Shown one piece after another: positions 9,447-46,622 of a DNA stretch of 64,000 nucleotides (position 1 is the first letter of the stretch; every line of letters begins with the position of its first letter). Under the pieces are notes generated by a model, which saw only the letters and a program-made list of their open reading frames with translations, was not told the origin of the DNA and searched no databases. Origin of the DNA: an uncultured Planctomycetota bacterium (lineage in GTDB: Bacteria > Planctomycetota > Planctomycetia > Gemmatales > Gemmataceae). Made by a program: the position numbers and the translations under genes. Where the stretch lies: the NCBI GenBank assembly GCA_963784995.1, contig CAWATZ010000006.1, positions 328,853-392,852 of the forward strand. Reading direction: 5' to 3'.

Positions 9447-12400
9447 TTACTTCCCGCCAACCCGTGCCACGTCATGGGCGTTCGCATCGAATGCCGCCAT
9501 CACCGCTTCCTCTTCCGACAGACCCAGCTGCTTGAATTTCAACTGCGTTTCAATCACGCGCCGGTAGTCGTTGGGGTAAACCTTGACAAACCGCGGCACC
9601 ATTGTCCTCCACGCCCCCAGCACCTGCCAGGCCCACTCGCTGCGCGTGTACTCGGCGTGCTTGAGGATCATCTGCCGGACCAACTCGATCTCCTCGGCAT
9701 CCTCCAGCTTGAACAGCTTGACCATCTCCTGGTTGCAGTTGCGCGGGAAGTCGCCGGTCTCATCCAGAACGTAGGCGATGCCGCCCGACATGCCCGCCGC
9801 GAAGTTCTTGCCGGTCGGCCCCAGCACAACCACCCGGCCGCCCGTCATGTATTCGCAGCCGTGATCGCCCACCGCCAGGACCACCGCGTTGATGCCGCTG
9901 TTGCGCACGCAGAAGCGCTCGCCGGCCATGCCCCGTACGTACGCCTCGCCGCTGGTGGCTCCGTAAAAGGCGACGTTGCCGATGATCACGTTTTCCGACG
10001 CGACAAACGTCGAGCCCTCCGGCGGCATGACGATGATCTTGCCCCCAGACAGACCCTTACCAACGTAATCGTTGGCGTCGCCTTCGAGCATCAGGGTGAT
10101 GCCCCGGGGCACGAAGGCCCCGAAACTCTGGCCGGCAGAGCCCCGGAAGCGCAGCAGGATTGTGTCCTCCGGCAGACCGGCCGCGCCGAAGCGGCGCGTG
10201 ACCTCGCTGCCCAGCATGGTGCCGACGACCCGGTTGACGTTGCGGATCGGCATGGGCGGCGGGGCCACCCTCGTGCCATTTTCCAGGGCCGGCTTGCACA
10301 TCGGAATCAGCGTGGTGCGGTCCAGCGCCTCGTCCAGGCCGTGGTCCTGTTTGTCCTTGCAATACCACACACGGTTGGCCGCCTCTTCCGGCTGGTGGAA
10401 GATCGGCGACAGGTCCAGGCCGGAAACCTTGTAGAAGTCGATGGCCTTTGTCGTCTCCAGCACCTCGCTGTGCCCCACCATCTCCTCGAGCTTGCGGAAA
10501 CCCAACTGGGCCATCCATTCGCGGACTTCCTCGGCGATGAAGCGCATGAAGTTGACCACGTGCTGCGGGTCGCCGGTGAACTTCTTGCGCAGCTCCGGGT
10601 CCTGGGTGGCCACGCCGACCGGGCAGGTGTTCAGATGGCAGACGCGCATCATCACGCAGCCCAGCGACACCAGCGGCGCGGTGGCGAAGCCAAACTCCTC
10701 GGCCCCGAGCAGGGCCCCGATGACCACGTCCCGGCCGGTCTTGAGCTGGCCGTCCACCTCGACGACAATCCGGCTGCGCAGGTCGTTGAGCAGCAGCGTT
10801 TGCTGGGTCTCGGCCAGGCCCAGCTCCCAGGGAGCGCCGGCGTGCTTGATGCTGGTCAGCGGGCTGGCGCCCGTGCCGCCGTCGTGGCCGCTGATCAGCA
10901 CCACGTCGGCGTGGGCCTTGGAGACGCCGGCGGCGATGGTGCCGACGCCGACCTCGGCCACCAGCTTGACACTGATCCGGGCTTGCGGATTGGCGTTCTT
11001 CAGATCGTGGATCAGCTCTTTCAGGTCCTCGATGCTGTAGATGTCGTGGTGCGGCGGCGGCGAGATCAGCCCGACGCCCGGCGTCGAATACCTGACCTTG
11101 GCGATCCAGGGATAGACCTTGCTGCCGGGCAGCTGGCCGCCCTCTCCCGGCTTGGCTCCCTGGGCCATCTTGATTTGCAGCTCTCTGGCCATGACCAGGT
11201 ATTCGCTGGTGACGCCAAAGCGTCCGGAGGCCACCTGCTTGATTGCGCTGTTCTTCGAGTCGCCGTGCTCGTTGGTCCAGCGATAGCGTTCGGGATCTTC
11301 GCCGCCCTCGCCGGTGTTGCTCTTGCCGCCGATGCGGTTCATGGCGATGGCCAGCGTCTCGTGTGCCTCCTTGCTGATCGAGCCGTAGGACATGGCGCCC
11401 GATTTGAACCGGCGCATGATCGATTCGACCGGCTCCACTTCCTCGATGGGGATGGGCTGCCGGATCGATTTGAACTCGAACAGACCGCGCAGGGTGCAGA
11501 GCCGCCTGGCCTGGTTGTTGACCAGACTGCTGTATTCCTTGAACACCTTGTAGTTGCCGGTTCGGCAGGCGTACTGGAGCTTGTGGATCGTCTCGGGATT
11601 GAAGAGGTGATACTCTCCCTCGCGCCGGTACTGGTAGTGGCCGCCGGCATCGAGGGTCCGGCCGGTGCCGGTTCGATCGGAGAAGGCCCGGCCGTGGCGG
11701 GCCAGCACTTCCGCGGCAATCACGTCCAGGCCGACGCCGGAGATCCGCGACGCCGTCCAGGTGAAGTAGCGGTCGATCACGCTCTTGTTCAATCCGACCG
11801 CCTCGAAGATCTGGGCGCCGCAATAGCTCTGGGCGGTCGAGATGCCCATCTTGGACATCACCTTCATGACGCCCTTGCCGAGGGCCTTGACGTATTGCTT
11901 GATCGCCTTGGCGTGGTCCATGCCGTTGAGCGGCATGCTGGCGGAGCAGGTCGTCGAGGGTCTCAAACGCCAGGTAGGGGTTGATGGCCCCGGCCCCGTA
12001 GCCGATCAGCAGCGCGAAGTGATGCACCTCGCGCGGCTCGCCGCTCTCCAGCACCAGGCCGACCTTGGTCCGCGTGCCCTCGCGGATCAGATGGTGATGG
12101 ACGCCGGCCACCGCCAGCAGGGCCGGGATGGGAGCGTGCTCCGCAGTCACCCCGCGATCCGACAGGATGATGAAATCGTGACCGGAAGCGACGGCGGCGC
12201 TGACCTTGCGGAACAGCCCCTCCAGCGCTCGTTCCAGCCCCACGGCCCCGTCCCCGGCCGGGAAGAGGATCGGCAGGGTGATGGTCTTGAAACCGCCCGG
12301 CCCGCTGCCGTCCAGCCGGCGGAGCTTGTCCAGCTCCTCGTTCTTCAGGATGGGCGTATCCAGCTTGATCTGCCGGGCGGACACGGGGGTCGGCTCCAGC

Positions 12401-14061
12401 AGATTGCACTCCGCGCCGATGGTGGTCTCCATCGACATGATGATCTCTTCGCGGATGCAATCGACCGGCGGGTTGGTCACCTGGGCGAACAGCTGCTTGA
12501 AGTAGTTGTACAGCAGCTGCGGCCGATCCGAGAGGACCGCCAGGGCCGCGTCATTGCCCATCGAGCCGACGGCCTCGTTGGCTTCCTGGGCCATCGGCGG
12601 CAGCAGGATCTTCAGGTCCTCGGTGGTGTAGCCGAACACCTGCTGGCGCAGCAGCACCGTTTCGTGGTCCGGTTCGTGGAACCTCGGCCCCACGGGCAGG
12701 TCGTCCAGGGAAACGAGGTTGTCGCGCACCCAGTCCGCGTAGGGCAGGGCCTGGGCCATTTGCTGTTTCAGCTCCTCGTCGGCGATGATCCGGCCCTGCT
12801 CCAGATCGACCAGGAACATCCGGCCCGGCTGCAGCCGGCCCTTGTGCAGCACCCGCTCCGGCGGAATGTCGAGGACGCCGACTTCGGACGCCATGATCAC
12901 CAGGTCGTCCTTGGTGACGTAGTAGCGCGACGGCCGCAGGCCGTTGCGGTCCAGCACGGCGCCGATGCGGACGCCATCGGTGAAGGCGATCGACGCCGGT
13001 CCGTCCCACGGCTCCATCAGGCAGGCGTGATACTCGTAGAAGGCCCGCTTGGCCGGGCTCATGGTCCTGTCGCCGCTCCACGGCTCCGGGATCATCATCA
13101 TGACCGCGTGCGGCAGCGACCGGCCGGCCAGCACCAGCAGTTCCAGGGCATTGTCGAACTTGGCCGAATCGCTGCCGCTCTCGTCGATGATCGGCAGCAG
13201 CTTCTCGACGTCCGGCCCGAACAGCTCGGAGCGGAACATCCGCTCCCGGGCGTGCATCCAGTTGACGTTGCCGCGCAGCGTGTTGATCTCGCCGTTGTGG
13301 CACAGGTAGCGGTAGGGATGGGCCCGGGCCCAGGTCGGGAAGGTGTTGGTGCTGAAGCGCGAATGGACCAGCGCCAGGGCCGAGTCCATCGCCGGATCTT
13401 TCAGGTCGGGGAAGTAATGCTCCAGCTGCGGGGCGTTGAGCATGCCCTTGTAAATCAGTGTCTTGCTGGACAGGCTCGGCAGGTAGAACATCCCGCGCTG
13501 TTCCAGGCCCGACTCCCGAGCAGCCTTCTCCATGCGCTTGCGGATGACGTACAGCCGGCGCTCGAACGCCAATTCATCGCCTGGAAGACAGCCCTCCCGA
13601 CCAATGAAAACCTGCCGCATCGCCGGCTCGCCCCGTTTGGCAGTGGGGCCGATGTCGGTGTTATCGGTAGGCACGTCCCGCCAGCCCAGGACGGTCTGTC
13701 CCTCCTCGCGGACGATCTGCTCGAAGGTCTCCTCCACAGTCCGGCGCTGCACCGGGTCGGTGGGCAGGAAGACCAGACCCGCACCATAGGCTCCGGGACC
13801 GGGAAGGCGAATCCCCAACTGATCGCATTCCCGCTGCAAGAAGCGATGGGGCATCTGCAAGAGAATGCCGGCCCCGTCTCCGGTGTTCTTCTCGCAGCCG
13901 CACGCGCCGCGATGCTCCAGGTGTACCAGGATCTGGATCGCTTTGCGGACAATGTCGTGCGACCGGCGGGCTTTCAGATCGACGACAAAGCCGACGCCGC
14001 AGGAATCGTGTTCGTTCTGCGGGTCATACAAACCTTGCCGGGAAGGAACCGCCTCCGTCAT
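9447..14061 (-). CDS. gltB: Glutamate synthase large subunit (apparent frameshift ~11955)
   Basis: The N-terminal ORF (10057-14061) has the class-II amidotransferase start [27 protein letters not shown]. The C-terminal ORF (9447-11966) has the FMN and GXGXG domains (…[12 protein letters not shown]…). Together they make one ~1530-aa GltB. Confidence 0.9.
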
Positions 14062-15071
14062 GGCACTGTCCTCTTTCTGCGGGTATGGTTCTGGTCCCGC
14101 TTCGCGTTGTCGTCTGGGTGCTGGTTTGTCTCACTCGTGGCTCCGTTTCGTGACCCGGCCGCGGCCTGGCCATTCTCGGCCGAGCGCAGCAGTTCAATGA
14201 AAGCCAGGGCCGCGTTGCCCGGAGGCTGTCGTCGATGAATGATGCCGACGGGGCGGACCAGCCGGCATCCCTCCAGGTGTAAGGCCCGGAGGGTCCCCGC
14301 TTGCAATTCCTCACGCAAGGTCGGCTCGGGCAGCAAGGCCAGCCCGCCGCCGATCTCCACGTCTTTCTTGATGTGTTCGATGTTGTCGAACGTATGCACC
14401 ACCTCGACCTCGACCCGCTTCTCGCGCAGGAACCGGTCGATTTCACGCCGGATCACCAGGTCCTTGTCAAAGGTGACAAACTTCTGGCCATCCAACTGGT
14501 CCGGCTGGACCGTCTCCAGCTGGGCCAGCGGGTGAGCGGGCGAGCAGACCACCACCATTTCCTCTTCCCGCCAGGGAAGCACTTTCAGCTCGCGCAGCCG
14601 GCCGGGAAACGAGACCAGGCCCAGATCGACCGTCCCCTCCAGGACCCGCTGGTACACCTGGTCGGGATGGACGTAATCGATGTGGACCCGGGCGTGGGGA
14701 TGCTCCGCCTCGAAGCGCTCGACGTATTGCCCCATGTCCCACAGTCCGACTGAGTAGATGGCCGCCACGCGCACGCTGATGGCCTGGCCGATAAACGACC
14801 GGCGCAGGGACGCCTCCAGCTCCAGATACTGCTCGATCAGCCGCTTGCAGCCCTCGTAATAGGCCTGCCCCATGGGCGTCAGCTGCATCGGCCGCTTGGT
14901 GCGGTCGAAGAGCAGGCCTCCCAGGCTCTCTTCCAGGTTGTGAATCCACCGGCTCACCGTGGGCTGCGGCAGATTGTTCACCTTCGCGGCTTCCGAGCAG
15001 CTTCGCAAGCTGGCCACGTCACAGAAGACTTTCAGCTCCGCAAGCTGCGGAAGATTGGTCAGCTGTTGCAT
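14058..15071 (-). CDS. LysR-family transcriptional regulator; its stop overlaps the gltB start (ATGA)
   Basis: HTH region [30 protein letters not shown] plus a LysR substrate-binding domain. The likely start is MQQLTNLPQ at 15071. Confidence 0.8.
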
Positions 15072-15204
15072 GGAGAGAATGTTAAGTATCCGCTGGGCGA
15101 ATAGCAAGATGACATTGGATAAAAAAAGTGAATTTGTTGAAGACGCCAGGAGCGAAGAACGGACGATCGGCACGATCGAACGGGGGTCCAGACGAGTGGT
15201 TGAG

Positions 15205-15510
15205 GGGAAAAAGAAATGGGGCTGTTTGGCCACACGTGGCAAACAGCCCCGGACTCTGGAGGACGTCTACGACACGACCTGGGACTCGGAAGGCTCTCGG
15301 ACCCGCCGAAGCGCTTCGCGAAGTCTTCCCGGTGGAAGACCGACTGGCGGGCTTGCCCCAGGCCACCGGGAAGACTTCGCGAAGCGCTTCGGAAGCGGGG
15401 CTGAAACAGCCTTCCCTGGGATGCATCGGACAGCAAACGCTCGGGCGGCGCAACGCCGCCCTGGTGCAAAGCACCGGAGCTAGACCTGGCCCTCCAGAGG
15501 CCCCGTCCCT
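15205..15510 (+). repeat. Structured repeat element R, copy 1 (~300 bp, multi-hairpin)
   Basis: It aligns with 18745-19062. The ends are conserved and hairpins A and B are maintained by fully compensatory changes. Confidence 0.65.
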
Positions 15511-15640
15511 GGGGTCGGTGAAGGAGTGTTTTACAACAGCTTTCGCCATCTCGCAAGCAAGGCAGAAAAAAACTTGAACGCGCCGGGCCTGTTTCAGGCA
15601 CTACAGTCCAGGAAGCCAATCACTGAGGGAGAACCGACCC

Positions 15641-18600
15641 ATGAAGCCAAGCCTTGCTCTTGTGCTGGCCCTGACGACTCTGGCCGCGGGGGTCAGCCTG
15701 GCCGCCTTCCAGCCGGCGGTCCCCGGGGCTGTAGGGAACGCCCTCCGTGGCGTTCCGGAGCCGGTCGCCGCGATCGAGCCGGAGCTGTTCGTGCCGCCGC
15801 CCGATCCTGGCGTCAAACCCATCAACGAGGAGGTGCTGACACTGGCCTTCTCGCCCGACGGCAAGAAGCTGGTCACCGCTGGGGCCTGGTGGGGGCTCGG
15901 AGGGCAAATCAAGATCTGGGACGTGGCCAGGGCCCGGGAACTGGTCACCCTCCGGGGCGTTCCCGGAGTGCGGACGGTCGCGTTTTCCCCACAGGGGACG
16001 CTCTTCGCCACCGGCGATTTCAAAGGGACGATCAGACTGCGCGACAGCACCACCGGCGAAGAGCGTGCGGCGGTGAAAGCCCAGCAGGCTGGCATCAATG
16101 GCCTGGCCTTTTCGCCGGACGGCGAGACGCTGGCCTGTGCCGTGCTGGATCGGACCGTGAAACTCTTCAGCGTGAAAGACCTGAAGGAGCGGCAAGTCCT
16201 TCGCGGGCACACCGAGATGGTCCTTTCGGTGGCGTATTTCCGCCAGGCCCCGGCCATCGTGAGCTGCGGCGGAGACAGGACCGCCCGGATCTGGGACCTC
16301 ACCACCGGCAAGGAAAAGTTTATCCTGAAAGGTCATGCCGGCGGCGTCGAGATGGTGGCCATTTCGCCGGACGACCAGGTGATCGCGACGGCCAGTTGGG
16401 ACGCTACCATCCGCCTCTGGGATGCGGCCACGGGTCAGGAACAGGCCACCTTCAAAGCGGCCAAACCGATCCCATTCAACGCCGTGGCTTTTTCCCCGGA
16501 TGGGACCCGCCTGGCCGGCGCCGGCGCGGATGGGACGGTCAGCCTCTGGGACGTGAAGACCAAACAACTGATCGGCAGTCTGCAAAAACACGTGCAGACC
16601 GTCTGGACGCTGGCCTTTTCTCCGGACGGCAACCTGCTGGCCAGCGGCAGCAGCGACACGACCGCCAAACTGTGGGACCTGAAGGCCGGCAAGGAAGCGG
16701 CGACGTTGCGGACCAGCCTGGCCGGTCAGCTCCATTCAGCCGGTCCTGAGCCTGGCTCACGCACCCGATGGCAAGGTCTTTGGGGTTGCCACGCAGAACA
16801 AGACGGCACAGGTCTTCGACAGCCAGACCGGCGATCGGCTGTTCGTCCTGGAGGGGCATACCGACACGGTTACCTGTCTGACGTTCGCGCCTGACGGTCA
16901 GACGCTGGCCACCAGCAGTCTGGATAGGACCATCAAGATTTGGGATCGGGCCACCGGCAAGGAAAAACACACCTTGAAGGGCCACGGCGCCAGCGTGCAG
17001 GCCCTGGTCTTCGCCGCGGACGGCAAGACACTGGCCAGTGCCGGGGACGACAAGGTCATCAAGGTCTGGGATGCCCAGCAAGGGAAAGAGCTGGCCACGC
17101 TCAAGGGGCACGAGGCGAGTATCCGGGCCCTGGTCCTGTCGCCGGACGGCCGGACGCTGATCGCCGGCAGTGTGGATGGCGTCATCAAGGTGTGGGACCT
17201 GGCCCAGCAAAAGGATGCGAAGACTTTCAAGGGGCACGAGGGCAGCGTGCGGGCGCTGGCCGTATCCGCGGCGGGGCTCCTGGCCAGCGGCGGCGACGAT
17301 GGCATGGTAAAGCTGTGGGACCTGAAACAGGGCAAGGAGGGCCTCACCCTGAAGCATCCGGCCGAAGTCCTGTCGCTGGCTTTCTCTCCGAGCGGCCAGA
17401 CCCTGATCAGCGGCTGTCAGGACTCGACTGTCCGGATGTGGGACCCGGCCACCGGCAAGGTCCGGGGCACCCTCACCAGGCACGGCAGCGAGGTCACGGC
17501 CCTCTCCGTCCATCCTCAGGGAGAGTACCTGCTCAGCGGTGGGAGCGAAGGCGTGCTGCTGCGCTGGCCAAAACCCGTCAGCGGCTTGCCGCAGTTGCCC
17601 TTGCTCTTCCGCCAGGATTTTCGGAACCAGCAGATCGCTGGGGATTCCTTGAAGTATCTCTCTGCCGAAGCAGCCAAGCGGTGCAAGGTGGAAGCCGAGG
17701 GCCTGCGCATCAGCCTGCTGGGCAAGAACGGCACACTCCAGAAGAGCGGCATCCAGACCCGCTTCGGAGTTCAGGGCGATTTTGACGCTACCGTGTCCTA
17801 CGAACTGCTTCAGGCGGAGTGGCCCCGAAAAGGCCCCGGCGTCGGGGTGCGGTTGATCGTGGCGGCCAACACGCCCAGCAGAGGAGAGCTGATGCTGGGT
17901 CGCATGAACCGCCTCGATGGGCTTGGCTACGCCTGCAACCTCTCGGCCCGGGACGCGGAGGGAAAACAGCAGATCAGGTCGGAAGGGTTCGCCACCGAGG
18001 TCCGCTCGGGCAAGCTCCGCCTGGTGCGTCAAGGGGCGATCGTCACGTGTCTGGTGGCGGAAGAGGGCTTCGATCGCTTCCGCAAGCTGTGCGAGCGCGA
18101 GCTGGGGAAAGAAGACCTGATGAACGTCCGCGTGGTCGCCGACGCCGGCGCCGCGGACAATCCGCCCCTGGAGATCCGGATTCGCGATTTCGAGGTCCGG
18201 GCCGAGCAGGTCGCGAAGGCGGCTCCGGTCCCAGCAGCCAATCGGCCCGTTCAGGGAGACCCGGCGATTCAACCCCCTGTCGGGGTGGTCCCGGACGTTC
18301 CCCGGAAGACGCCGCCAGACCCCCAGGCTCAACCCCCCTCTGGCGGGGTCAAGGACGGTGCCGGCAAGACCTCGCCGGACGAGTCGGATACGTGGCTCCT
18401 CATCCTCGCGATCATTGGGCTGGTGTTCGCTGGAGCTTTCTTCGCCTGGGCCCTCTGGTTCCGGCTGAGGCAGGGTCGAGCCGAGGCCAAATCCCTGGCG
18501 CAACCCACCGGGCGCGCGGCTGACTCCTCGGAGAGGCCAAAGACAAGGACCGAAGCGGTGAAGACGGACCGCCCGGTGCAACGCCCCGGGAGTGCGGCCA

Positions 18601-18719
18601 TTTCCTTTGCCTGTCCGGATTGTGGGCAGAAGCTCAAGGTCAAGGCGGAGGTGGGCGGCAAGAAGATCAAGTGCCCCCAGTGCAGCAAGCCCGTTCTGGT
18701 GCCGCAAGGCGAAGCGTAG
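15641..18719 (+). CDS. Large secreted WD40-repeat protein (signal peptide, ~14 WD40 repeats, C-terminal TM helix and CxxC…CxxC zinc ribbon); apparent frameshift ~16730
   Basis: ORFs 15641-16894 and 16974-18719 are contiguous WD40 repeats in different frames; the second frame stays open upstream (…PVLSLAHAPDGKVFGVA…). The C-terminus has WLLILAIIGLVFAGAFFAWALWF and CPDCGQK…CPQCSKP. Confidence 0.75.
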
Positions 18720-18744
18720 CCTAACGCGGACAAGAACAACCGGC

Positions 18745-19062
18745 GCGGAAAGAAACGGGGCTGTTCGACAGGTTTGCCGAACAGCCCCGGACTCTGGAGG
18801 ACGTCTACCACGAGACCTGGACCACGGAAGGCTCTCGGACCCGCCGGGCAATAGTGCCCTGGCCAGCGGCTGGGACCACGCCTGGCGGGGTTGTTCCAGA
18901 CCAGCCGCTGGCCAGGGCACTATTGCCCGGAAGCGGGGCTGAAACAGCCTTCCCTGGGACGGATGCACAGCGAAACGCTCGGGCGGCGCAACGCCGCCCT
19001 GGTGCAAAGCACCTGAGCTAGACCTGGCCCTCCAGAGACCCCTTCCCTGGGGGTTTGTGCGA
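18745..19062 (+). repeat. Structured repeat element R, copy 2
   Basis: Aligned with copy 1; it lies between the convergent WD40 and dihydroxyacetone-kinase 3' ends. Confidence 0.65.
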
Positions 19063-19099
19063 GGGCTGTTGTATTCCAGCGGGAGCCGGCGGACAAGCA

Positions 19100-20800
19100 T
19101 CAGGGAAGGGTCAGGGCGCCGAGCCAGACGGCGACGGCCTCCGCACCGGGGTCTGGATGACCGAGGGCGCGGGCGCCGAGGTAGCTGGAACGCCCGCGCC
19201 GGGGCAGCATCTCGGCCGTCGCCCGGGCGGATGCGGCGGCGGCAGCCTGTGCGGCTCGGAGGGCCTCGGCCGAGGGCCGGCCGGAACGGATCGCGTCCTG
19301 GAACGCTTCCGCGGCCGGCAGCAGGGCGTCGAGCATGGTCCGATCGCCGCGGCTGGCGCCGCCCAGCTCGGCGATGGCCGCGCAGCCGGCCTGGAAAGCA
19401 TCCGCCCACGTGCTCGGGTCCAGGGGCCGACCGCGGAGAGTCTGGCTGGCTCGCAGGAAGAACGCGGCATAGAGCGGGCCGGACGTTCCTCCCAGGGCGC
19501 GCTGCAAGGTCAGGCCAAGGGCGTGCAGCGCGGCGGCCGGATCATCGAGGGGATACGCCGGCAGTTGCTCCTGGACGGCCCGGGCGCCTCGTTCCAGGCT
19601 GATGCCGAGATCGCCGTCGCCGACCACCTGGTCCATCCGCGTCAGCTCCGGCGCTGCCTCGATCAGCGCTCGGGTGGCAGCCTGAAGCGCCGCTCCCAGA
19701 GCTTGTCCGAGTCGGGTTTGCGGCGGAGCCGGTGCGGCGACAGCGACCGGAGGCGCCGGCGGCTCGGAAGTCGGCGCCGGCCGGGTTCGCGGCCGGGCGG
19801 CGGCGTTGGGCCAGGCCGGGGCGTCCGTCGGAGCGTCCAGGCGGGCCAGCAGCCCCGTCTCGACCGGCAGGACGGAAAGAGAGATTCCGGACATTTCCAG
19901 AGCGGAAAGGAACGTGCCGAGGTAGACTCGCTTCACCGTCAGTCCTCGGTCCTCCAGGACAGCGAGCGCTCGCCGCGTGGCGATGGCCAGCTCCATCGTC
20001 GGCGTCGCGCCGAGATTGTTCACCAGCAGCACGACCCGGCTGCCGGGCTCCGGTTTCAGGTCGGCAAGGATCGCGTCGAGGAGATGATCGACCAGGGCAT
20101 CGACCGGCTCCAGCGGTCCACGCCGGACGCCCGGCTCGCCGTGAATGCCCAGGCCAAGCTCGATCTCGTTCTCGCCAAGAGTAAAGGTTGGTCGCCCGGC
20201 AGCCGGGACCGTGCATGGCGAGAGAGCCACGCCCATGGTCCGCACCGCCCCGGCTGCGGCCCGCGCGATGGCAGCGACATCGGCCAGCGGCAGGCCCGCC
20301 TCGGCGGCCGCACCCGTGACCTTGTGGACCAGGATCGTGCCGGCCAGTCCGCGCCGCCCGGCATGCTCGACCGAGCCGGCCAGGGCCACGTCGTCGGCAA
20401 CCAGAACGATCTCGACCGGGATGCCCTCGGCGCGGGCCAGCTCAGCGGCCAGGCCAAAGTTGAGCCGGTCGCCGGTGTAGTTCTTGACGATCAGCACCGC
20501 CCCGGCCGGCCCCGCCGTGGCCCGGATGGCAGCGAGGACGGCATCGGGGCTGGGTGAGGTGAACACGTCGCCGGCCACCGCGGCGCTCAGCATCCCTCGA
20601 CCGACGTAACCGGCATGGGCCGGCTCGTGGCCGCTGCCGCCGCCGGAGATGACCGCCACCGGCCGCTCGGCTGGCGTCGGAACGTCGGCGCGGATCAGCA
20701 CTGTCTGGCCGGGGAGCCGACGCAGCCCGGGGTAGGCGGCGGCCAGCCCCTCGATCATCTCCTCGACGACGGCTTCCGGGCGGTTGATGAGCTTTTTCAC
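19100..20800 (-). CDS. Dihydroxyacetone (glycerone) kinase, fused DhaK-DhaL type; GTG start
   Basis: DhaK motifs ISGGGSGHEP and NYTGDRLNFGLA; DhaL motif DGDLGISLERGA. Confidence 0.85.
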   Translation of the reverse strand: MKKLINRPEAVVEEMIEGLAAAYPGLRRLPGQTVLIRADVPTPAERPVAVISGGGSGHEPAHAGYVGRGMLSAAVAGDVFTSPSPDAVLAAIRATAGPAGAVLIVKNYTGDRLNFGLAAELARAEGIPVEIVLVADDVALAGSVEHAGRRGLAGTILVHKVTGAAAEAGLPLADVAAIARAAAGAVRTMGVALSPCTVPAAGRPTFTLGENEIELGLGIHGEPGVRRGPLEPVDALVDHLLDAILADLKPEPGSRVVLLVNNLGATPTMELAIATRRALAVLEDRGLTVKRVYLGTFLSALEMSGISLSVLPVETGLLARLDAPTDAPAWPNAAARPRTRPAPTSEPPAPPVAVAAPAPPQTRLGQALGAALQAATRALIEAAPELTRMDQVVGDGDLGISLERGARAVQEQLPAYPLDDPAAALHALGLTLQRALGGTSGPLYAAFFLRASQTLRGRPLDPSTWADAFQAGCAAIAELGGASRGDRTMLDALLPAAEAFQDAIRSGRPSAEALRAAQAAAAASARATAEMLPRRGRSSYLGARALGHPDPGAEAVAVWLGALTLP

Positions 20801-38410: not shown

Positions 38411-41400
38411 TCACCGCGGCGGCTCCGTGTACCCATTCCCCCTGCCATCGCCCGGCCCATGGTGCCCCGGTTCGGGATGGTGCTGGATCGGCGCCGGGTG
38501 GTAGCTGTCCGTCGCCCCATCGTCCAACCCCATCATCGCCAGCCGCCGGTCGGCGAACCACTGGATCACGGAGTAGAACACCGGCGTCAGGAAGATGCCG
38601 AAGATGGTCACGCCCAGCATGCCCCAGAACACCGCCGTGCCCAGCGTCCGTCGCATCTCGGCACCGGCCCCCTCTGACAGCATCAGCGGCACCACGCCCA
38701 GGATGAACGCGAACGACGTCATGATGATCGGCCGCAACCGCAGCTGGCACGCCGACAGCGTCGCCTCCTTGCGCGGCATGCCCGTCTCACGCTGCGCCTT
38801 GGCGAACTCCACGATCAGGATGGCGTTCTTGCACGCCAGGCCCACCAGCACCAGGAAGCCGATCTGCGTGAAAATGTTGATGTCCATCCTGGCCATGACC
38901 ACACCACTGATGGCGCACAGCAGACACATCGGCACCACCAGGATCACGGCCAGCGGCAGCGACCAGCTTTCGTACTGCGCCGCCAGCACCAGGAAGACCA
39001 GCACCACGGCCAGCAGGAAGACCCAAGTGGCCGTGTTGCCCGTCGCCAGCTGCAAATAGGCCAGCTCGGTCCACTCCGTCCGCATCCCCTGCGGCAGGTC
39101 GGCGTTGGCCACGTCGAACAGCCGGTCGATCGCCTGGCCCGACGACGTGCCCGGGCCGGCGTCGGCGTAAATTGCCGCCGAGGCGTACATGTTGTAACGC
39201 ATCACCAGCACCGGGCCGCTCACGAACTTCACCTGCGTGAAGGCCGACAGCGGCACAAACTGACCCTGGTCGTTGCGCACCCGCAGATGCTTGATGTCCT
39301 CCACCGATTGGCGGAATTTCTCCAGGGCCTGGACGTTCACCTGCCAGGTCCGGCCGAAGCGGTTGAAATCGTTGATGTAATAGGCGCCCAGGTTGGCCTC
39401 CAGTGTCGTCCGCACGTCGTCGATCGAAACGCCGCGATCCTTGGCCTGGGCCCGATCGATGACCAGCTCCAGCCAGGGCGTGTCGGCCCGGAAGCTGGTG
39501 AACAGACCTTGCAGTTTCGCATCGTTCGAGCCTTCGTGGACCACGTCGTCGGCGCTCTTCTGCAGCATCGCCAGGGTGTTGTCGCCGGTGTCCTGCAAGA
39601 TGATCTTGAAGCCGCCCGCCGTGCCCAGGCCCTCCACCGGGGGGGCACCGAAGATGTTCACGATGGCATTGGGCACCTCGTCGTTGAACTGCTCCTCCAG
39701 CTTGGCCGCGATGTCGTCGGCCGACAGATTGGGACGATCCTCGAACTCCTCCAGCATCACGTACAACGCTCCAAAGTTGGAGGCGTTGGCATTGAGAAGG
39801 ATCGACTGGCCGGCGATGGCAACCGTGTGCTTGACACCCCTGGTATTCAGGGCCAGTTCCTCGATCTTCTTGACCACGGCCTGAGTCCGGGGCAGGGCGG
39901 CGGCGTCGGGCAGCTGGACGTTGACCAGCAGGAAGCCCTTGTCCTGCTGGGGAATGAAGCCGGTCGGCGTCGTCTGGAAACCGTACCAGGTCAGGTACAA
40001 GAGGCCGCCATAGAGCAGCAGCACCACGGCGCTGACCCGCAGCAGACCGCCCACCGAGCGGACGTAGGCGGTGGTCGAGAGATCGAAGCCCTTGTCGAAG
40101 CCGCGGAAGAACCAGCCCAGCAGGAAGTTGACCGGCTTCGACAGCAGCACGCCGATCCCCGTGGCCACCAGCACACCCAGCACGATCGGCCCCCACAGGC
40201 GCAGGGCGTCCAGCTGGGCCGTGGTCAGCTGTAGGATCGGTTCGGGGCCGGTCAGTTGCAGGGCCGACAGGGCCTCGCCGGCCCAGTGCCGGCCGATCTT
40301 GTGGCCCAGCCAGGCGCCCAGAGGCGGAAAGACAAACCACGGCATTGGCTCAAAGATGCCCTTGACCCGCCGCCGCAGCAGAATGGCCGACAGGGCCGGG
40401 CTGAGGGTCAGCGAGTTGAAGGCGGAGATCAGCGTCGAGACGGCGATGGTCACGGCGAACTGGCGGAAGAACTGGCCGACAATGCCGGTGATGAAGGCGC
40501 ACGGCACGAACACCGCCGCCAGCACCAGGCCAATGGCGATCACTGGGCCGGACACCTGCTCCATCGCCTTCAGACTCGCCTCCCGCGGCGACATGCCGTG
40601 TTCGATGTGATGCTCCACGGCTTCGACGACGACGATGGCGTCGTCCACCACGATGCCGATGGCCAGCACCAGGCCGAACAGCGTCAGGTTGTTCAGACTG
40701 AAGCCGATGGCGGCCATCACGGCGAAGGTGCCGACGATGGCCACGGGCACGGCGATCAGCGGGATCAGGGTGGAGCGCCAGTTTTGCAGGAACACCAGCA
40801 CCACCACGGCCACCAGCACGATGGCGTCAAAGAGCGTCTCGAACACCTCCCAGACCGATTCGCGGATGAACGGCGTGGTGTCGTAGACCACCCGGTAGTC
40901 GTAGCCGGGCGGAAAATACTCCTTCAGCTGCCGCATGCGCTTCTTGACACGCTCGGCCACGTCCATGGCGTTGGAGCCGGGCAGCTGGTAGACCGACAGG
41001 GCCACCGACGGCTTGCCGTCCATCGTGCAGGTCTGGTCGTACGACTGAGCGTCAAAAGCGACCTTGGCCACGTCCTTCACGTAGACCAGCGTGTTGCCGT
41101 CGTTGCGCAGCATGATGCGCTCGAACTGCTCGGGCGTCTCCAGCCGGCCCAAAGTGGTGATGATGTACTGCGACACCTGGCCCTTCGGCGTCGGCGGCTG
41201 GCCGATCTGACCGGCGGCCACCTGGATGTTCTGCTCGCTGACCTTGTTGATCACGTCCTGGGCGTTCAGACCGTAGGAGGACAGTTTCTGCGGGTCCAGC
41301 CACAGCCGCATGCTGTAGTTGCGCTGGCCGATGTAGGTGATGTCGCCGACGCCCGGCAGACGGGACAGCTCGTCGCGGATCTGAATAGTGGCATAGTTGG

Positions 41401-41866
41401 ACAGCTGCAAGCTGCTGCGCGAGTTGTCGCTGGAGAAGAGGTTGACGATCAGCAGCACGTTGGGTGACTTCTTCTTGACGGAGATACCACGCCGCTTGAC
41501 CAGGTCGGGCAGGATCGGCTCGGCCAGCGACTCGCGGTTTTGCACCAGCACCTGGGAGATATTAAGATCGGAGCCGGGCTGGAAGGTGACCGTTAGAGTG
41601 TAGTTGCCGTCGTTGGTGCATTGCGACGACATGTACATCATCCCTTCGACGCCGTTGACCTGCTGCTCGATTGGAGCGGCCACGGTGTCGGCCACGACCT
41701 GGGCGTTGGCGCCCGGGTAGGAGGCGGACACTTCGACCGTCGGCGGCGCGATCTCGGGATACTGAGCCACCGGCAGGGTGAACAGCGAGATGCCGCCGCC
41801 CAGCACGATCACGATCGATAGCACCGACGCGAAGATCGGCCGGTTGATGAAAAAGCGCGAAAACAT
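38411..41866 (-). CDS. RND (HAE1/AcrB-family) efflux transporter
   Basis: MFSRFFINRPIFASVLSIVIVLGG… with 12 TM segments and large periplasmic loops; full length. Confidence 0.9.
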   Translation of the reverse strand: MFSRFFINRPIFASVLSIVIVLGGGISLFTLPVAQYPEIAPPTVEVSASYPGANAQVVADTVAAPIEQQVNGVEGMMYMSSQCTNDGNYTLTVTFQPGSDLNISQVLVQNRESLAEPILPDLVKRRGISVKKKSPNVLLIVNLFSSDNSRSSLQLSNYATIQIRDELSRLPGVGDITYIGQRNYSMRLWLDPQKLSSYGLNAQDVINKVSEQNIQVAAGQIGQPPTPKGQVSQYIITTLGRLETPEQFERIMLRNDGNTLVYVKDVAKVAFDAQSYDQTCTMDGKPSVALSVYQLPGSNAMDVAERVKKRMRQLKEYFPPGYDYRVVYDTTPFIRESVWEVFETLFDAIVLVAVVVLVFLQNWRSTLIPLIAVPVAIVGTFAVMAAIGFSLNNLTLFGLVLAIGIVVDDAIVVVEAVEHHIEHGMSPREASLKAMEQVSGPVIAIGLVLAAVFVPCAFITGIVGQFFRQFAVTIAVSTLISAFNSLTLSPALSAILLRRRVKGIFEPMPWFVFPPLGAWLGHKIGRHWAGEALSALQLTGPEPILQLTTAQLDALRLWGPIVLGVLVATGIGVLLSKPVNFLLGWFFRGFDKGFDLSTTAYVRSVGGLLRVSAVVLLLYGGLLYLTWYGFQTTPTGFIPQQDKGFLLVNVQLPDAAALPRTQAVVKKIEELALNTRGVKHTVAIAGQSILLNANASNFGALYVMLEEFEDRPNLSADDIAAKLEEQFNDEVPNAIVNIFGAPPVEGLGTAGGFKIILQDTGDNTLAMLQKSADDVVHEGSNDAKLQGLFTSFRADTPWLELVIDRAQAKDRGVSIDDVRTTLEANLGAYYINDFNRFGRTWQVNVQALEKFRQSVEDIKHLRVRNDQGQFVPLSAFTQVKFVSGPVLVMRYNMYASAAIYADAGPGTSSGQAIDRLFDVANADLPQGMRTEWTELAYLQLATGNTATWVFLLAVVLVFLVLAAQYESWSLPLAVILVVPMCLLCAISGVVMARMDINIFTQIGFLVLVGLACKNAILIVEFAKAQRETGMPRKEATLSACQLRLRPIIMTSFAFILGVVPLMLSEGAGAEMRRTLGTAVFWGMLGVTIFGIFLTPVFYSVIQWFADRRLAMMGLDDGATDSYHPAPIQHHPEPGHHGPGDGRGNGYTEPPR

Positions 41867-41879
41867 TATTGGCTCTGCC

Positions 41880-43076
41880 TCACTTGCCTGTCTCGTTGTT
41901 TTGCTCGAATGTTGGCTCACCGTAGGACGGCTCTCCCGAGCCGTCCGGACGGCTCGGGAGAGCCGTCCTACGCGGCCCTTGGGGCTGAGTGAAACCCCAG
42001 CGCAGGATTACGACCAGCAGCGCCACGGCCACCGGCACGATGGCGGCTTTGAGTCCCGTCGTCCAAACGGAAGCCCAGCTGAACGGTGGGACGTCCTGGG
42101 CCACGACGTAATCAAGGCCGGGCGGGAAACGAGCCTTCAGCTGCTCCATCGACTTCTTGACGCGCTCAGACACCTCCCGGGGGTTGTCGCCGGGGATCTG
42201 GTAGATTTCCAGTCCTACCGCTGGTTTGCCGTCCACCGTGCAGTCCGGGTCGTTGGGCTGCTCGCGGGGTTCAATCCTGGCCACGTCCTTGAGACGCACC
42301 AGCTTGTCGCCGGCGTTGTGCAGGATGATGTCTCCAAATTGCTCAGGGCTCTCCAGCCGGCCTAGAGAGGTGATGACCAACTGCGGCGGCTTACCGTGTT
42401 CCATGGGCGGTGGGTCAATCGGCGCGGCCACCTGGACATTCTGTGCGTTGATCGCGTTGACGACGTCCAGGGCGCTGATACCGTTGGATAACAGTTTCTT
42501 CGGGTCCAACCACATCTGCAGGTGGTTGTCGCGCCGGCCAATGCAGATCACGTCGCCGACGCCGGGGACCCGGGACAGTTCATCGCGGACAAAGATCGTG
42601 GCGTAATGGCTCAGGAACACGACGTCGTGCTTGCCGTCGCTGGAGTAAAGCTTGACGAGCATCAGCGCCTTCGCCGATCTCTTCTTGACGGAGACGCCCT
42701 CGTACTGCACTTCTGCGGGAATCGTCGGCAGCGCCAGCGCGACGCGGTTCTGCACCAGCACCTGCGCCATGTCCAGGTCGGTCCCACGCCGAAAGGTGAT
42801 GATCAACTCGCAGTTGCCATCATCGGCGCATTTCGAGGTCAGGGACGCCATCCCCTCGACACCTTGGATCTCTCTTTTGAGTGGAGCGGCCACGGTGTCG
42901 GTCACGGTCTGGGCGTTCACTCCCGGATAGGATGCGGACACGACCACCGTTGGCGGGCCGGTTTGCGGGGACTGGATGACCGGCAGCGTAAACAGAGCGA
43001 CGCCGGCTCCCAGCACGATCCCAAGTGCCAGCACCGATGCGATGATCGGTCGATAGATGCTCAAGCGCGAAAACAT
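41880..43076 (-). pseudogene. Truncated RND transporter fragment (N-terminal ~345 aa only)
   Basis: MFSRLSIYRPIIASVLALGIVLG…; homology ends after the first periplasmic loop and TM2 (~aa 345), and the remaining ORF tail translates the palindrome. Confidence 0.7.
41922..41971. repeat. Perfect 25+25-bp palindrome (no loop) just upstream of the RND start
   Basis: gtaggacggctctcccgagccgtcc|ggacggctcgggagagccgtcctac. Confidence 0.6.
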
Positions 43077-43103
43077 TAGGTGTACCCCGCTTCATTCAGT
43101 CTG

Positions 43104-43181
43104 CCGAGCCGCGCACGCAGCGCAGCGGAGTAAGCGGCCCGCAGCAACCGCTTACTCCGCTGCGCTGCGTGCGCGGCTCGG
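43104..43181. repeat. Perfect 34-bp-stem palindrome with 10-nt loop, overlapping the RND 3' end
   Basis: ccgagccgcgcacgcagcgcagcggagtaagcgg-cccgcagcaa-ccgcttactccgctgcgctgcgtgcgcggctcgg. Confidence 0.6.
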
Positions 43182-46100
43182 ACCCTTCGCAAAGGCGTCG
43201 TGCCTTGGTCTTTTTTCCACGTGTGAGATGCCTTTGCCTCGGGGTCTTAACAGCTTCGGCAACCACGGCAGCCCCAGTGCCAGCGCTCCCAGCACCAGAA
43301 ACAGTATCCGGCTAAACTGCCGGGCCCGCACCGAGGAGAACAGCGGTATCTCAACAAAGCCTTCGATGACGTAGAAGAACACCGGCGTCAGGAAGATGCC
43401 GAACAGGGTCACGCCCAGCATGCCGCTGAACACCGCCGTGCCCAGCGAGCGCCGCATCTCCGAGCCGGCTCCGATGGACACCAGCAGCGGCACCACGCCC
43501 AGGATAAAGGCGAACGACGTCATCAGGATCGGCCGCAAGCGCAGCCGGCACGCCTCCAGGGTGGACAGGTCGCGCGCCAGACCATCCTCGCGCTTGTGCT
43601 TGGCGAACTCCACGATCAGGATGGCGTTCTTGCTGGCCAATCCCACCAGCACCACGAAGCCAATCTGCGTGAAGATGTTGATGTCCGTCCCGGTCACGGC
43701 CACGCCGGTCAGCGAGCCGAGGATGCACATGGGCACCACCAGGATCACCGCCAGCGGCAGCGCCCAGCTCTCGTACTGCGCCGCCAGCACCAGGAACACG
43801 AACACCACCGCCAGCGGGAAGATCAGGCTGTTCCAGACGTTTTTCGCGGCGTCGATCTGAATGTAATTGATCTCGGTCCACTCAAAGCCCATCGACTGCG
43901 GTAGGGTGTCGTTACAGAGTGCCTCCATGGTGTCGATGCCCACGCCCGAGGACACGTCGCTGCGGCAGCTGCCGACAATGGCGGCGGCCGGATACATGTT
44001 GTAGCGTGCCACCAGGATCGGACCGCCGACCTCCTTGATGGTCATGAGCGAGCCCAGCGGCACCATGCTGCCCTTGTTGTTCCGCACCTTGATCAGACGG
44101 ACCTTGTCGGGATTGTCGCGGTAAGGCCCCTGCGCCTGGACGACCACTTGCCAGGTCCGGCCGAACTTGTTGAAGTCGTTGACGTACAGCGAGCCGAGGT
44201 AAATCTGCAAGGTGCTGAACACGTCGCGCGGATTGACGCCCATTGTCTGGCACTGGTCGCGATCCACGTCCACGTACAGCTGCGGCGCGTTGGCCCGGAA
44301 GACCGTGAAGGCACTGGCGATCTTGTCGTTCTTGCGAGCGGCGTTGATGACCTCGTCGGTCTGTTTTTGCAGCTCGGCCAGGCTGTTGTCGCCGCGGTCC
44401 TCGATGATCAGCTTGTAGCCGCCCGCCGAGCCCAGCCCCGAGACCGGCGGCGGTCCAAAGATCGAGATGATCGCCTCGGGAATCTCCTCGCTCAGTCGGG
44501 CCCGCAGCCGATCGGCGATGGCGTTGCTGGACAGACTGTGAGCGACCCCGTTTTCATCGACGTAAGGGTAACGGCGCTCCTCGAAGGATTTGAGGGTGAT
44601 GAACAGGTTGCCGAAGTTGGAACCGTTGGCGCTGAGCGTGAACGACGAGCCGGCAATGGAGATGGTGTGGGCCACGCCGGGCATCCGGCGAATGATTTCG
44701 CTGGCATGGTCCATCACCTTCTGGGTCCGCTCCAGCGAGGCGGCGTCGGGCAGCTGCACGGCGGCGAAAAGCCGGGACTGGTCCTGGTCCGGGATGTAAC
44801 CGACCGGCAGCCGGGTCGAGATCCACCAGGTCAACCCCATCAGGCCGCCGTACACCACCAGTACCAGGACACAGCCACGCAGGGCCAGGCCCACCAGTTG
44901 CGTGTAGCCCCCGACCGTCTGGCGGAAGCACCAGTTGAACAGGCGGAAGAACCAGCCCAGCAGCACGTCCAGCGCTCGGCCCAGTACGTCCTTGCGGGCG
45001 TTGCGAGGCTGGAGCAGGATGGCGGCCAGGGCGGGGCTCAGCGTCAGCGAGTTGAACGCCGAGATCACGGTCGAGACCGCAATCGTCAGGGCGAACTGGC
45101 GGAAGAACGAGCCGGTGATGCCGCTGATGAAGGCACAGGGCACAAACACCGCCGACAGCACCAGGGCCACCGCCACCACGGGGCCCGACACCTGCTCCAT
45201 CGCCTTGTGGGCGGCGGCCCGCGGCGACAGGCCATGCTCGATGTGATGCTCCACGGCCTCGACGACGACGATGGCGTCATCGACCACGATGCCGATGGCC
45301 AGCACCAGGCCGAACAGCGTCAGGTTGTTCAGACTGAAGCCAATGGCCGCCATCGCAGCGAACGTGCCCACGATGGCCACGGGGACAGCAGTCAGTGGGA
45401 TCAGGGTTGAGCGCCAGTTTTGCAGGAAGATCAGCACCACGATGGCCACCAGCACGACGGCCTCGATCAGAGTGCGGATGACCTCGTCAATCGACTCCTG
45501 AACGAACGGCGTGGTGTCAAAAACGATGGCGAAGTCCAGACCCTCGGGGAAATGTCTCTTCAGCTCCTCCATGCGGTTGCGCACGTTGCTGGCAGTGCTG
45601 ATGGCGTTGGCGTAGGGCAGCTGGAAGATGGCCAGGCCGGTGGACGGATACTGGTCCATCTTGATGGTGGTGTCCAGGTTGCGGCCGCTCATCTCGGTGA
45701 AGCCCACGTCCCGGAGGCGGACCGGCCGGCCATCGCTGGTGGTGCGCAGGACGATGTCGTTGAACTGCTCCGGATCGCTCAGCCGGCCCAGCGTGGTGAT
45801 GGTGAACTCGAAATGCTGGTCCGCCGACGTCGGCTGCTGACCGACGTGGCCGGCCGCCACCTGCCGGTTCTGCTCGCGGATGGCGGCAACCACGTCGGCG
45901 GCGGTCAGGTTCAGCTCCGCCAGCCGGTCGGGATCGACCCACAGGCGCATGCTGTAGTCCTGCTGGCCGAAGACGAACACGTCGCCGACGCCGGGAACCC
46001 GGGCCATCTCGTCCTTGAGTTTGATGGTGGCATAGTTACTGATGTAGAGCCGATCATAGCGCCCATCAGGCGAGTACAGGTTGACGACCAGGAGGATGTC

Positions 46101-46505: not shown

Positions 46506-46531
46506 CGAGCCAACCTCCCCTTCCCATTTTC

Positions 46532-46622
46532 TCCCCTCACCCCGCCGGTTAGCCCGACGCGCCAGCGAGGGAACAACGGACTCCCTCGCTGGCGCTTCGG
46601 GCTAACCGGCGGGGTGAGGGGA
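46532..46622. repeat. 41-bp-stem palindrome (1 mismatch) with 9-nt loop between the MFP and RND genes
   Basis: tcccctcaccccgccggttagcccgacgcgccagcgaggga…tccctcgctggcgcttcgggctaaccggcggggtgagggga. Confidence 0.6.

Follow-up and report, generated by a model that had tools for sequence, protein, structure and literature searches.

Two repeats of ~300 nt flank a WD40 gene in a 64-kb stretch of DNA from an uncultured Planctomycetota bacterium of the Gemmataceae (assembly GCA_963784995.1, contig CAWATZ010000006.1, positions 328,853 to 392,852; "the window" below means this whole stretch, and coordinates are counted from its first letter). We estimate a probability of roughly 0.7 that each repeat is a self-contained msr-msd non-coding RNA (ncRNA) gene of the type XIII (Mx162-like) retron lineage, an identification made by anatomy. 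Mx162, a type XIII element, was the first retron discovered; to our knowledge, the function of type XIII retrons is not yet known. Copy A (15210-15556) and copy B (18749-19096) lie in direct orientation with a scaffold identity of 89-96% and, as read from the DNA, are two separate minus-strand ncRNA genes, each equipped with a promoter and a terminator.

The original prediction had described two direct structured repeats, and a repeat search of the window bears this out. Three blocks, 15237-15308/18775-18846 (89% identity), 15390-15426/18928-18964 (95%), and 15435-15514/18973-19052 (96%), are separated by a constant offset of 3538 nt, and each copy holds a perfect inverted repeat with 30-nt arms, 100% complementary, around a 27-nt loop. 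The arms are unrelated in sequence between the two copies, and the intervening loop is partly conserved. The stem had been given as 28 bp and its two sequences as completely different: it is perfect and does differ between copies, with a length of 30 bp, of which ~20 bp are truly hypervariable; full or partial conservation is seen at the outer CCG/CGG and in the ~8 bp next to the apex. Each of three conserved strings is present at exactly two places in the window, with 0 occurrences expected in shuffles, and the two copies fold far more stably than shuffled sequence (z = −9.9 and −11.5). No third window copy was found with up to 3 mismatches to the conserved strings or with an nhmmer profile of the family. 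Rfam 15 gave no real match for the whole window at the gathering threshold or for 14900-19400 at E<=1, the only matches being spurious ones to mir-4672 and VA.

Anatomy of the two minus-strand RNA genes

The predicted parts of both genes, in the order in which the RNA would be transcribed, are as follows, with the basis of each assignment in brackets (MFE, minimum free energy).

15528-15556, minus strand: copy A promoter, −35 TTGCGA, 17-nt spacer, −10 TAAAAC (regular-expression match)
15501-15514, minus strand: copy A 5' leader hairpin, CCCC-AGGGAC-GGGG (alignment; distance from the −10 box)
15489-15499, minus strand: copy A a1, the 5' strand of the closing stem, CUCUGGAGGGC (pairs with 15254-15264; in MFE fold)
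15478-15488, minus strand: copy A invariant CAGGUCUAGCU containing TAGC, with the predicted priming (branching) G at 15480
15463-15475, minus strand: copy A msr hairpin GGUGC-UUU-GCACC (helix 100% paired across the alignment)
15443-15461, minus strand: copy A msr hairpin GGGCGGCG-UUG-CGCCGCCC (helix 3, 100% paired across the alignment)
15287-15420, minus strand: copy A msd long arm, comprising conserved basal helices, variable helix and apical module (helices 5-8)
15306-15392, minus strand: copy A variable hairpin, 30 bp perfect (arms 15306-15335 and 15363-15392)
15336-15362, minus strand: copy A apical loop, with a CUGG/CCAG mini-helix and a 3' bulge
15254-15270, minus strand: copy A invariant GUAG, whose G faces the priming G, then a2, CCUCCAGAG (alignment, MFE fold)
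15210-15251, minus strand: copy A intrinsic terminator, an 11-bp stem with inner GCCAC/GUGGC, then AUUUCUUU (the "hairpin A" of the original prediction)
19068-19096, minus strand: copy B promoter, −35 TTGTCC, 17-nt spacer, −10 TACAAC
19039-19053, minus strand: copy B 5' leader hairpin (by coordinates on the alignment)
19027-19037, minus strand: copy B a1 (cognate a1/a2 pairing)
19016-19026, minus strand: copy B CAGGUCUAGCU, with the predicted priming G at 19018
18981-19013, minus strand: copy B msr hairpins, at 19001-19013 and 18981-18999 (alignment helices)
18825-18958, minus strand: copy B msd long arm (alignment helices)
18844-18930, minus strand: copy B variable hairpin, 30 bp perfect (arms 18844-18873 and 18901-18930; apical loop 18874-18900)
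18792-18808, minus strand: copy B GUAG and a2 (a1/a2 pairing)
18749-18789, minus strand: copy B intrinsic terminator, 15 pairs, then GUUUCUUU (terminator scan 18789-18756)

Both copies thus retain promoter, a1/a2, TAGC, perfect stem, and terminator, and each element extends further than first described, reaching the promoters. That of copy B begins 4 nt after the stop codon of the neighbouring Dak kinase gene. The strand also had to be revised: the RNA is encoded on the minus strand, and the plus strand considered originally is the sense of the predicted complementary DNA (cDNA), that is, of multicopy single-stranded DNA (msDNA). Within "hairpin A", read earlier as a stem preserved by paired changes, one compensatory pair (T-A to C-G) can be recognized. 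Because a conserved minus-strand promoter lies at one end and a terminal hairpin with a U-tract at the other, this hairpin, followed by TTTCTTT, is better read as the intrinsic terminator of an RNA running in the opposite direction. The copy A terminator was read directly from the sequence, the terminator scan having skipped it owing to a bulge.

A consensus structure computed with RNAalifold on 13 full copies of the family (see below) had 97.2% of its cells paired, vs. 80.3% after within-column shuffling and ~41% after sliding the partners, and included 34 pairs with changes on both sides. In the variable long helix, 25 of the 29 pairs were altered on both sides and 98.4% of cells remained paired, in line with the earlier claim that structure is kept without sequence. 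The cognate a1/a2 duplex measures 8-11 bp in all 14 full copies, and its sequences covary between lineages (a1 variants CUCUGGAGGGC, CAGGAGG, CCGGAGGG, UUUUGGAGGG, UCCAGAGGGC, CCCUGGGGGC, GUCGGGAG, and CCCGGAGGA), with a mean energy of −19.2 kcal/mol for cognate vs. −14.5 for non-cognate combinations. CAGGUCUAGCU and GUAG are invariant in 13/13 copies. In the MFE fold of 15252-15500 (minus strand), the terminal stem, formed by a1/a2 and GUCUA:UAGAC, ends immediately 5' of UAGC G. Across the family, the two msr hairpins are GGUGC-UyU-GCACC (5 bp) and GGGCGGCG-UUG-CGCCGCCC (8 bp), the latter with two compensatory GC-to-AU changes (in copies L001b and L013; handles of this kind denote loci and copies collected outside the window). 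In the long arm, conserved basal helices lead to a helix of 29-30 bp, which is capped by a conserved mini-hairpin that has an 8-nt bulge on its 3' side. Folded as DNA, the plus strand of 15268-15430, which is the predicted msDNA sense, reached z = −10.1.

This layout is that of a retron. In retron ncRNAs the a1/a2 ends are complementary, the msr forms one to three hairpins, and the msd is a long hairpin whose stem varies greatly (PMC7736814, PMC6868368), and TAGC is the commonest context of their priming G (PMC6868368). The window RNAs show complementary ends within the 8-30 nt expected of a1/a2, a putative priming G in TAGC at the inner end of the a1 stem facing a second G, and msr hairpins within the usual number of 1-3 followed by a single long msd hairpin whose variable stem falls in the range of 10-50 bp. 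The a1/a2 stem, the TAGC-type priming G, the short msr hairpins, and the single long msd hairpin are all shared with type XIII msr-msd RNAs such as Mx162. Sizes agree as well: the a1-to-a2 span is 249 nt, compared to 241 nt for the Mx162 primary transcript (PMC6868368), and the predicted cDNA is ~160 nt, compared to 162-163 nt.

Orphan copies and the operon-linked paralogue

The family was collected with an exact 20-mer, scanned against a single genome for each species, and a degenerate 26-mer, scanned against metagenomes; since these were single-shot exact-motif scans, copy numbers are lower bounds. True homologues were found only in Gemmatales/Gemmataceae bins or metagenome-assembled genomes (MAGs) and in soil or peat metagenomes, and the count of copies in related genomes proposed in the original prediction yields at least ~17 distinct ones after removal of identical contigs. 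Their stems all differ in sequence; each is near-perfect, of equal length (29-30 bp), and carries the same conserved loop. A promoter matching TTGnnn-N16/17-TA[ACG]AA[AC] stands at a fixed upstream place in 15 of the 17 distinct copies (background 0.004 per 95 nt), the 3' end of each copy is a G+C-rich hairpin followed by a U-tract, and the copies cease to resemble one another precisely at the −35 box and the terminator. The 5' leader hairpin is optional, being absent from the short-leader copies L012, L015, L023, and L024. In a separate observation, four identical hits in an Acidobacteriota genome (L004, L007, L008, and L009; bin219, JAXGLX010000002.1) are an unrelated segment that shares GGGGCTGAAACAGCCTTCCC by chance; the segment carrying this 20-mer is multi-copy in that genome and apparently coding.

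In five orthologous loci (L019, L020, L027/L028, L029, and L030), an operon of the same orientation follows immediately downstream of the RNA. The RNA is complete in L028 (2085-2352) and cut by the contig start in L027, L029, and L030. The operon encodes, in order, a protein of ~1070 amino acids (aa), a small open reading frame (ORF) in some loci, proteins of 650 aa (WD40/HEAT), ~1550 aa (HEAT), and ~621 aa, and finally a 429-430-aa product which, where complete, is annotated as RVT_1, the reverse transcriptase (RT) domain, in precomputed Pfam. Compared to PADLOC models, the L027/L028 operon matched HEAT-ARM_XIII (E = 0) together with WGR_XIII (2e-42), HEAT-ARM_XIII again (3e-191), and SWIM_XIII (1e-187), and the 127 RT residues that were read matched RT_XIII (E = 1e-14). 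L019 and L020 carry the same first operon gene as L027/L028 and are syntenic with each other; in both, a gene of 1066-1154 aa lies shortly downstream of the RNA and runs in the same direction. As this synteny persists at only ~70% nucleotide identity, the linkage between RNA and operon must be old.

Type XIII retrons (RT clade 10) include Retron-Mxa1/Mx162, Sau1/Sa163, Mxa2/Mx65, and Nex2/Ne144 (Mestre et al. 2020, PMC7736814). The companions of their RT are SWIM (cluster 114) and WGR/HEAT-ARM (cluster 216 etc.) proteins, vertical inheritance and a distinct ncRNA structure have been noted as features of the clade, and type XIII retrons have already been recorded in Planctomycetota. The related loci described here thus carry, at the ncRNA, the RT, SWIM, and WGR/HEAT-ARM proteins of this type, and share its vertical inheritance. 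Unlike in known type XIII retrons, the Gemmatales ncRNA is not contiguous with the RT gene, and extra copies are dispersed as independent genes. A separate ~70-bp repeat, in direct and inverted orientation and at 85-94% identity, was also seen in the intergenic gaps of the operon (L028 5617-5686 and 6274-6344; L027 3352-3421, 4009-4079, and 12894-12962), on either side of the small ORF and immediately ahead of the RT gene.

The window copies stand apart from any such operon. The WD40 gene separates the two, and their outer neighbours are ordinary genes as well: a LysR regulator gene (14061-15071, minus strand) next to copy A and a Dak1/Dak2 kinase gene (19103-20800, minus strand) next to copy B. 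Other orphan copies adjoin TPR, GH99-like, GluRS, DUF7133, and SNF2 genes, and no conserved neighbour genes were found across loci besides the type XIII operon. Nor are orphan positions conserved in relatives: the closest relative of the LysR gene (79% aa identity, L025) has different neighbours and no element, and a relative of the GluRS-linked locus (89% aa identity, L026) also lacks it. Scaffolds nevertheless keep 89-100% identity amid randomised promoter spacers, terminator loops, and flanks, and two orphans of one MAG (L005 and L006) are, the stem excepted, nearly identical to its operon-linked copy (L003 = L020). From these sequence patterns, the orphan copies look functional and maintained, and those of the window are presumably used in trans by a type XIII RT encoded elsewhere in the genome.

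A second closely spaced pair was found in L001, where two direct copies 1.6 kb apart enclose two small convergent genes without Pfam match (185-1550); such pairs a few kb apart probably reflect local duplication. Copy b of L001 adjoins a SWIM-containing SNF2 helicase gene matching DpdE/ZorD-type defence models. The WD40 protein of the window was considered as a possible retron component and rejected, its HEAT-ARM_XIII match (profile positions 84-285 of 1972) running through generic WD40 repeats only.

Pairing and turnover of the variable helix

Within the variable helix, pairing is almost strictly Watson-Crick. G·U pairs occupy 1 of 325 cells, vs. 53 of 728 in the scaffold (p = 6e-8), a depletion of more than 10-fold that is likely due to the helix being required at both levels, in the template RNA and in the cDNA: an RNA G·U turns into a C·A mismatch in the cDNA, so that Watson-Crick pairs alone suit the two. 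The 15 complete hairpins contain 7 non-Watson-Crick pairs, 6 of which lie 5-8 bp from the apex; the P value of this clustering (2e-4) refers to a post hoc window and is indicative only. A·C in the RNA accounts for four of the seven, which would become G·T wobbles in the cDNA. Known msd stems as a rule contain mismatches or wobble pairs, and mismatched msDNA stems titrate MutS (PMC6868368). Unlike these, the Planctomycetota stem is perfect and strictly Watson-Crick, the likeness to Mx162 being one of anatomy and size. A strictly Watson-Crick helix, taken with the MutS titration by mismatched stems, fits a retron product.

The stem is also the fastest-changing part of the locus. Between the orthologous operon-linked copies L020, L028, and L029, stems share 6-7 of 21 positions (random expectation 0.29; P = 2e-5 to 2e-4), whereas identity is 71-74% at four-fold sites in the adjacent gene (random expectation 45%), ~70-80% in the downstream non-coding flank, and 90-100% in the scaffold; L030 and L019 add two further unrelated stems. 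This comparison, in which the closest orthologue pairs with both stems stand at ~86% aa identity, shows at the sequence level that stems turn over faster than silent sites of neighbouring genes. Shuffling of stems between paralogues is an unlikely source, since no stem recurs among genomes. The arms are rich in nested mini-palindromes, with a summed longest perfect stem of 81 vs. 59 ± 3.5 in mononucleotide shuffles, a moderately strong excess. A blastn-short search of the window and all collected loci for sequences that the variable arms might target returned no more than the arms themselves, and exact 20-mers of three stems and one scaffold motif had no match in IMG/VR; an origin of the stems as spacers or guides is thus neither supported nor excluded by these arm searches. 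The L028 stem has a C·C mismatch 4 bp from its base, while L027, which differs from L028 at 2 positions in 10.8 kb, has the complementary base at its position 10. As this site lies 10 nt from a contig end within a palindrome, we discounted it as a true single-nucleotide polymorphism, and it more probably reflects an assembly path through the other arm.

Based on this anatomy, we propose the following mode of action. Minus-strand transcripts would run from ~15520 to 15215 for copy A and from ~19060 to 18755 for copy B, and their 5' end (a1) would pair with the 3' end (a2), leaving the TAGC G at the inner end of the stem. The two short msr hairpins would form the handle recognised by the RT, and the long arm would serve as the msd template. 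A type XIII RT encoded elsewhere could then prime from the 2'-OH of the TAGC G and copy the long arm into an msDNA of ~160 nt, in the sense of the plus strand of the window, with a perfect 30-bp hairpin. If orphan genes are served in trans, a single RT would generate a repertoire of msDNAs differing only in ~20 bp of stem. Engineered retron recombineering works with a comparable arrangement, in which one RT acts on separate ncRNAs with different msd payloads and the msDNA can recombine into homologous chromosomal sequence (PMC6868368); one RT with several trans ncRNAs is what the two would have in common, and the natural counterpart proposed here is one that we infer.

Three causes may be considered for the rapid turnover, in decreasing order of preference. 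Diversifying selection could act on the msDNA as a sensor or decoy in conflict with phages; msDNA carrying RT errors could recombine back into its own gene, much as happens in engineered retron recombineering; or template switching from arm to arm could occur in the DNA palindrome, which would leave base pairs near the apex uncorrected, in line with the mismatches clustered there and the semi-conserved state of that part, and would also explain the nested mini-palindromes. Taken to its full extent, this leads to a tentative and rather doubtful proposal: that Gemmatales type XIII retrons are natural multiplexed retrons, with one RT operon, dispersed ncRNA genes, and an msDNA duplex of ~20 bp that is actively diversified by RT-error write-back and/or arm-to-arm repair, the stems being fast-evolving specificity determinants (sensors or decoys). 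If use in trans holds, a retron need not be a compact cassette, and surveys of RT-adjacent sequence would miss most of the template repertoire. The combination of a strict Watson-Crick stem with turnover faster than silent change would point to selection or mutagenesis acting on the msDNA itself, and offers a handle on its role. Genome engineering uses multiplexed retron donors encoded in trans, and a system of this kind would give them a precedent in nature.

Alternative explanations and surrounding genes

Several results weigh against the assignment to type XIII retrons. A canonical retron ncRNA is contiguous with its RT gene (msr-msd-ret), and the window copies are not: Pfam detected neither an RT (RVT) domain nor a type XIII protein in the ~45 ORFs of the 64-kb window, and tblastn of the window with five operon proteins returned WD40-repeat similarity alone. 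Even the linked copy lies ~12 kb, or four to five genes, upstream of the RT gene and has its own terminator; the RT sequence seen directly amounts to the 127 residues mentioned above; and Rfam gives no match for the RNA. The asymmetry among wobbles (4 vs. 1) is not statistically significant, and msDNA production, action in trans, and every cause of hypervariability are what we infer from the DNA.

Some of these points would suit a stand-alone structured regulatory or scaffold small RNA of the Gemmatales that is never reverse-transcribed, its position at the operon reflecting regulation or chance and its long helix acting as a spacer or a site for binding of double-stranded RNA. Such an RNA would be expected to have its own promoter and terminator at every copy, to lie mostly far from any RT, to escape Rfam, and to keep a helix of fixed length (29-30 bp), all of which was observed. 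It would leave unexplained why all retron hallmarks meet in one RNA, from a1/a2, the TAGC G, and its opposing G to the msr hairpins and the Mx162-like size, and why the RNA heading a retron operon is so deeply conserved. A helix needed only as RNA should moreover accept G·U pairs, whereas these are depleted here by more than 10-fold, and we consider this explanation unlikely. Signal recognition particle RNA, 6S RNA, Y RNA, bridge RNA, omega RNA, CRISPR, and attC were dropped as identities on anatomy and context.

The orphan copies might instead be non-functional relics, remnants of duplicated or retro-inserted ncRNAs in decay, as proposed for repeats in Nannocystis exedens. According to the part of PMC6868368 that deals with this host, Ne160 (Retron-Nex1) is represented by several msr-msd repeats in one chromosome with no RT within a kilobase, next to the clade 10 retron Ne144 in the same host, and the repeats are read there as products of duplication or retrotransposition (Lampson & Rice 1997). 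This precedent of multiple RT-less copies, along with the absence of copies at corresponding loci of relatives (L025 and L026), speaks for decay. Unlike what is described for the Ne160 repeats, each Gemmatales copy combines a conserved scaffold and a stem found in no other copy with a promoter and a terminator, as a maintained gene would. Scaffolds conserved at 89-100% amid randomised spacers, loops, and flanks indicate purifying selection; promoters (15/17 copies), a1/a2, TAGC, and near-perfect stems are retained across copies; and the copies include promoter and msr, which retro-inserted msDNA would lack. Decay is therefore a distinctly improbable account.

The original prediction had left a choice between a functional RNA and a hairpin-dependent mobile or recombination element, of which the structured RNA has stood. 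An element resembling a miniature inverted-repeat transposable element (MITE), an attC site, or an insertion sequence (IS) end, delimiting a WD40 cassette that can be excised or duplicated, would account for two direct copies bracketing one gene in the window and two small genes in L001, and for the frequent breaks of metagenome contigs at the element, which indicate repetition within genomes. attC sites of integrons, which are imperfect hairpins of 57-141 bp with conserved ends and extrahelical bases that stand beside intI in cassette arrays, likewise flank genes as direct copies and keep their hairpin structure while sequence varies. Unlike attC, the repeats form a conserved 300-nt scaffold with promoter and terminator, the perfect stem lies inside the transcribed part, and no integrase is encoded in the window; with the variable part internal and the ends conserved, they reverse the logic of attC. 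An integron cassette was rejected on these grounds, and because the enclosed genes are unrelated between loci. A MITE or IS-derived repeat was rejected as well, the borders showing no terminal inverted repeats or target-site duplications, similarity ending at the −35 box and the terminator, and the inverted repeat being internal and copy-specific.

More generally, no integrase, transposase, or recombinase was found near any copy, neighbours differ at every locus, and one copy is positionally stable between genomes ~70% identical in DNA. Nor is WD40 a consistent cargo, the pair in L001 enclosing two unrelated small genes and no WD40 gene. Recombination between the direct repeats, as suggested earlier, is physically possible, with no evidence for it in the present data, and we regard a mobile or recombination element as very improbable. 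In the retron reading, the contig breaks are ascribed to the ncRNA being a multi-copy palindromic repeat: contigs begin inside it (L027, L029, and L030) or 145-409 nt upstream of the first operon gene (P0246 and P0244 contigs). In practice, the element breaks metagenome assemblies in the bacteria that carry it.

The enclosed WD40 gene (15641-18719, plus strand) is an ordinary Planctomycete β-propeller gene, one of three in the window. Described earlier as a single giant open frame, it comprises two ORFs (15641-16894 and 16974-18719), with the frame changing between ~16695 and 16878: frame 2 holds the WD repeats at 16355 and 16610 and frame 0 those from 16878 onward, and the repeat spacing at the change is 268 nt, vs. 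255, 252, and 246 nt for its neighbours. The gene is either a pseudogene or affected by an assembly indel error. The housekeeping gene gltB (9447-14061, minus strand) is apparently also split between two frames near ~11900-12005, where an ORF with GATase_2 and a truncated Glu_syn_central domain (10057-14061) is overlapped in another frame by an ORF (9447-12005) with high G+C at third codon positions; this second apparent frameshift suggests assembly indel errors. Finally, a 403-aa ORF (41883-43091, minus strand) that covers only positions 1-349 of the AcrB profile, between full-length AcrB-type genes at 38414-42007 and 43155-46601 (both minus strand), is either a truncated paralogue or a further frame break.

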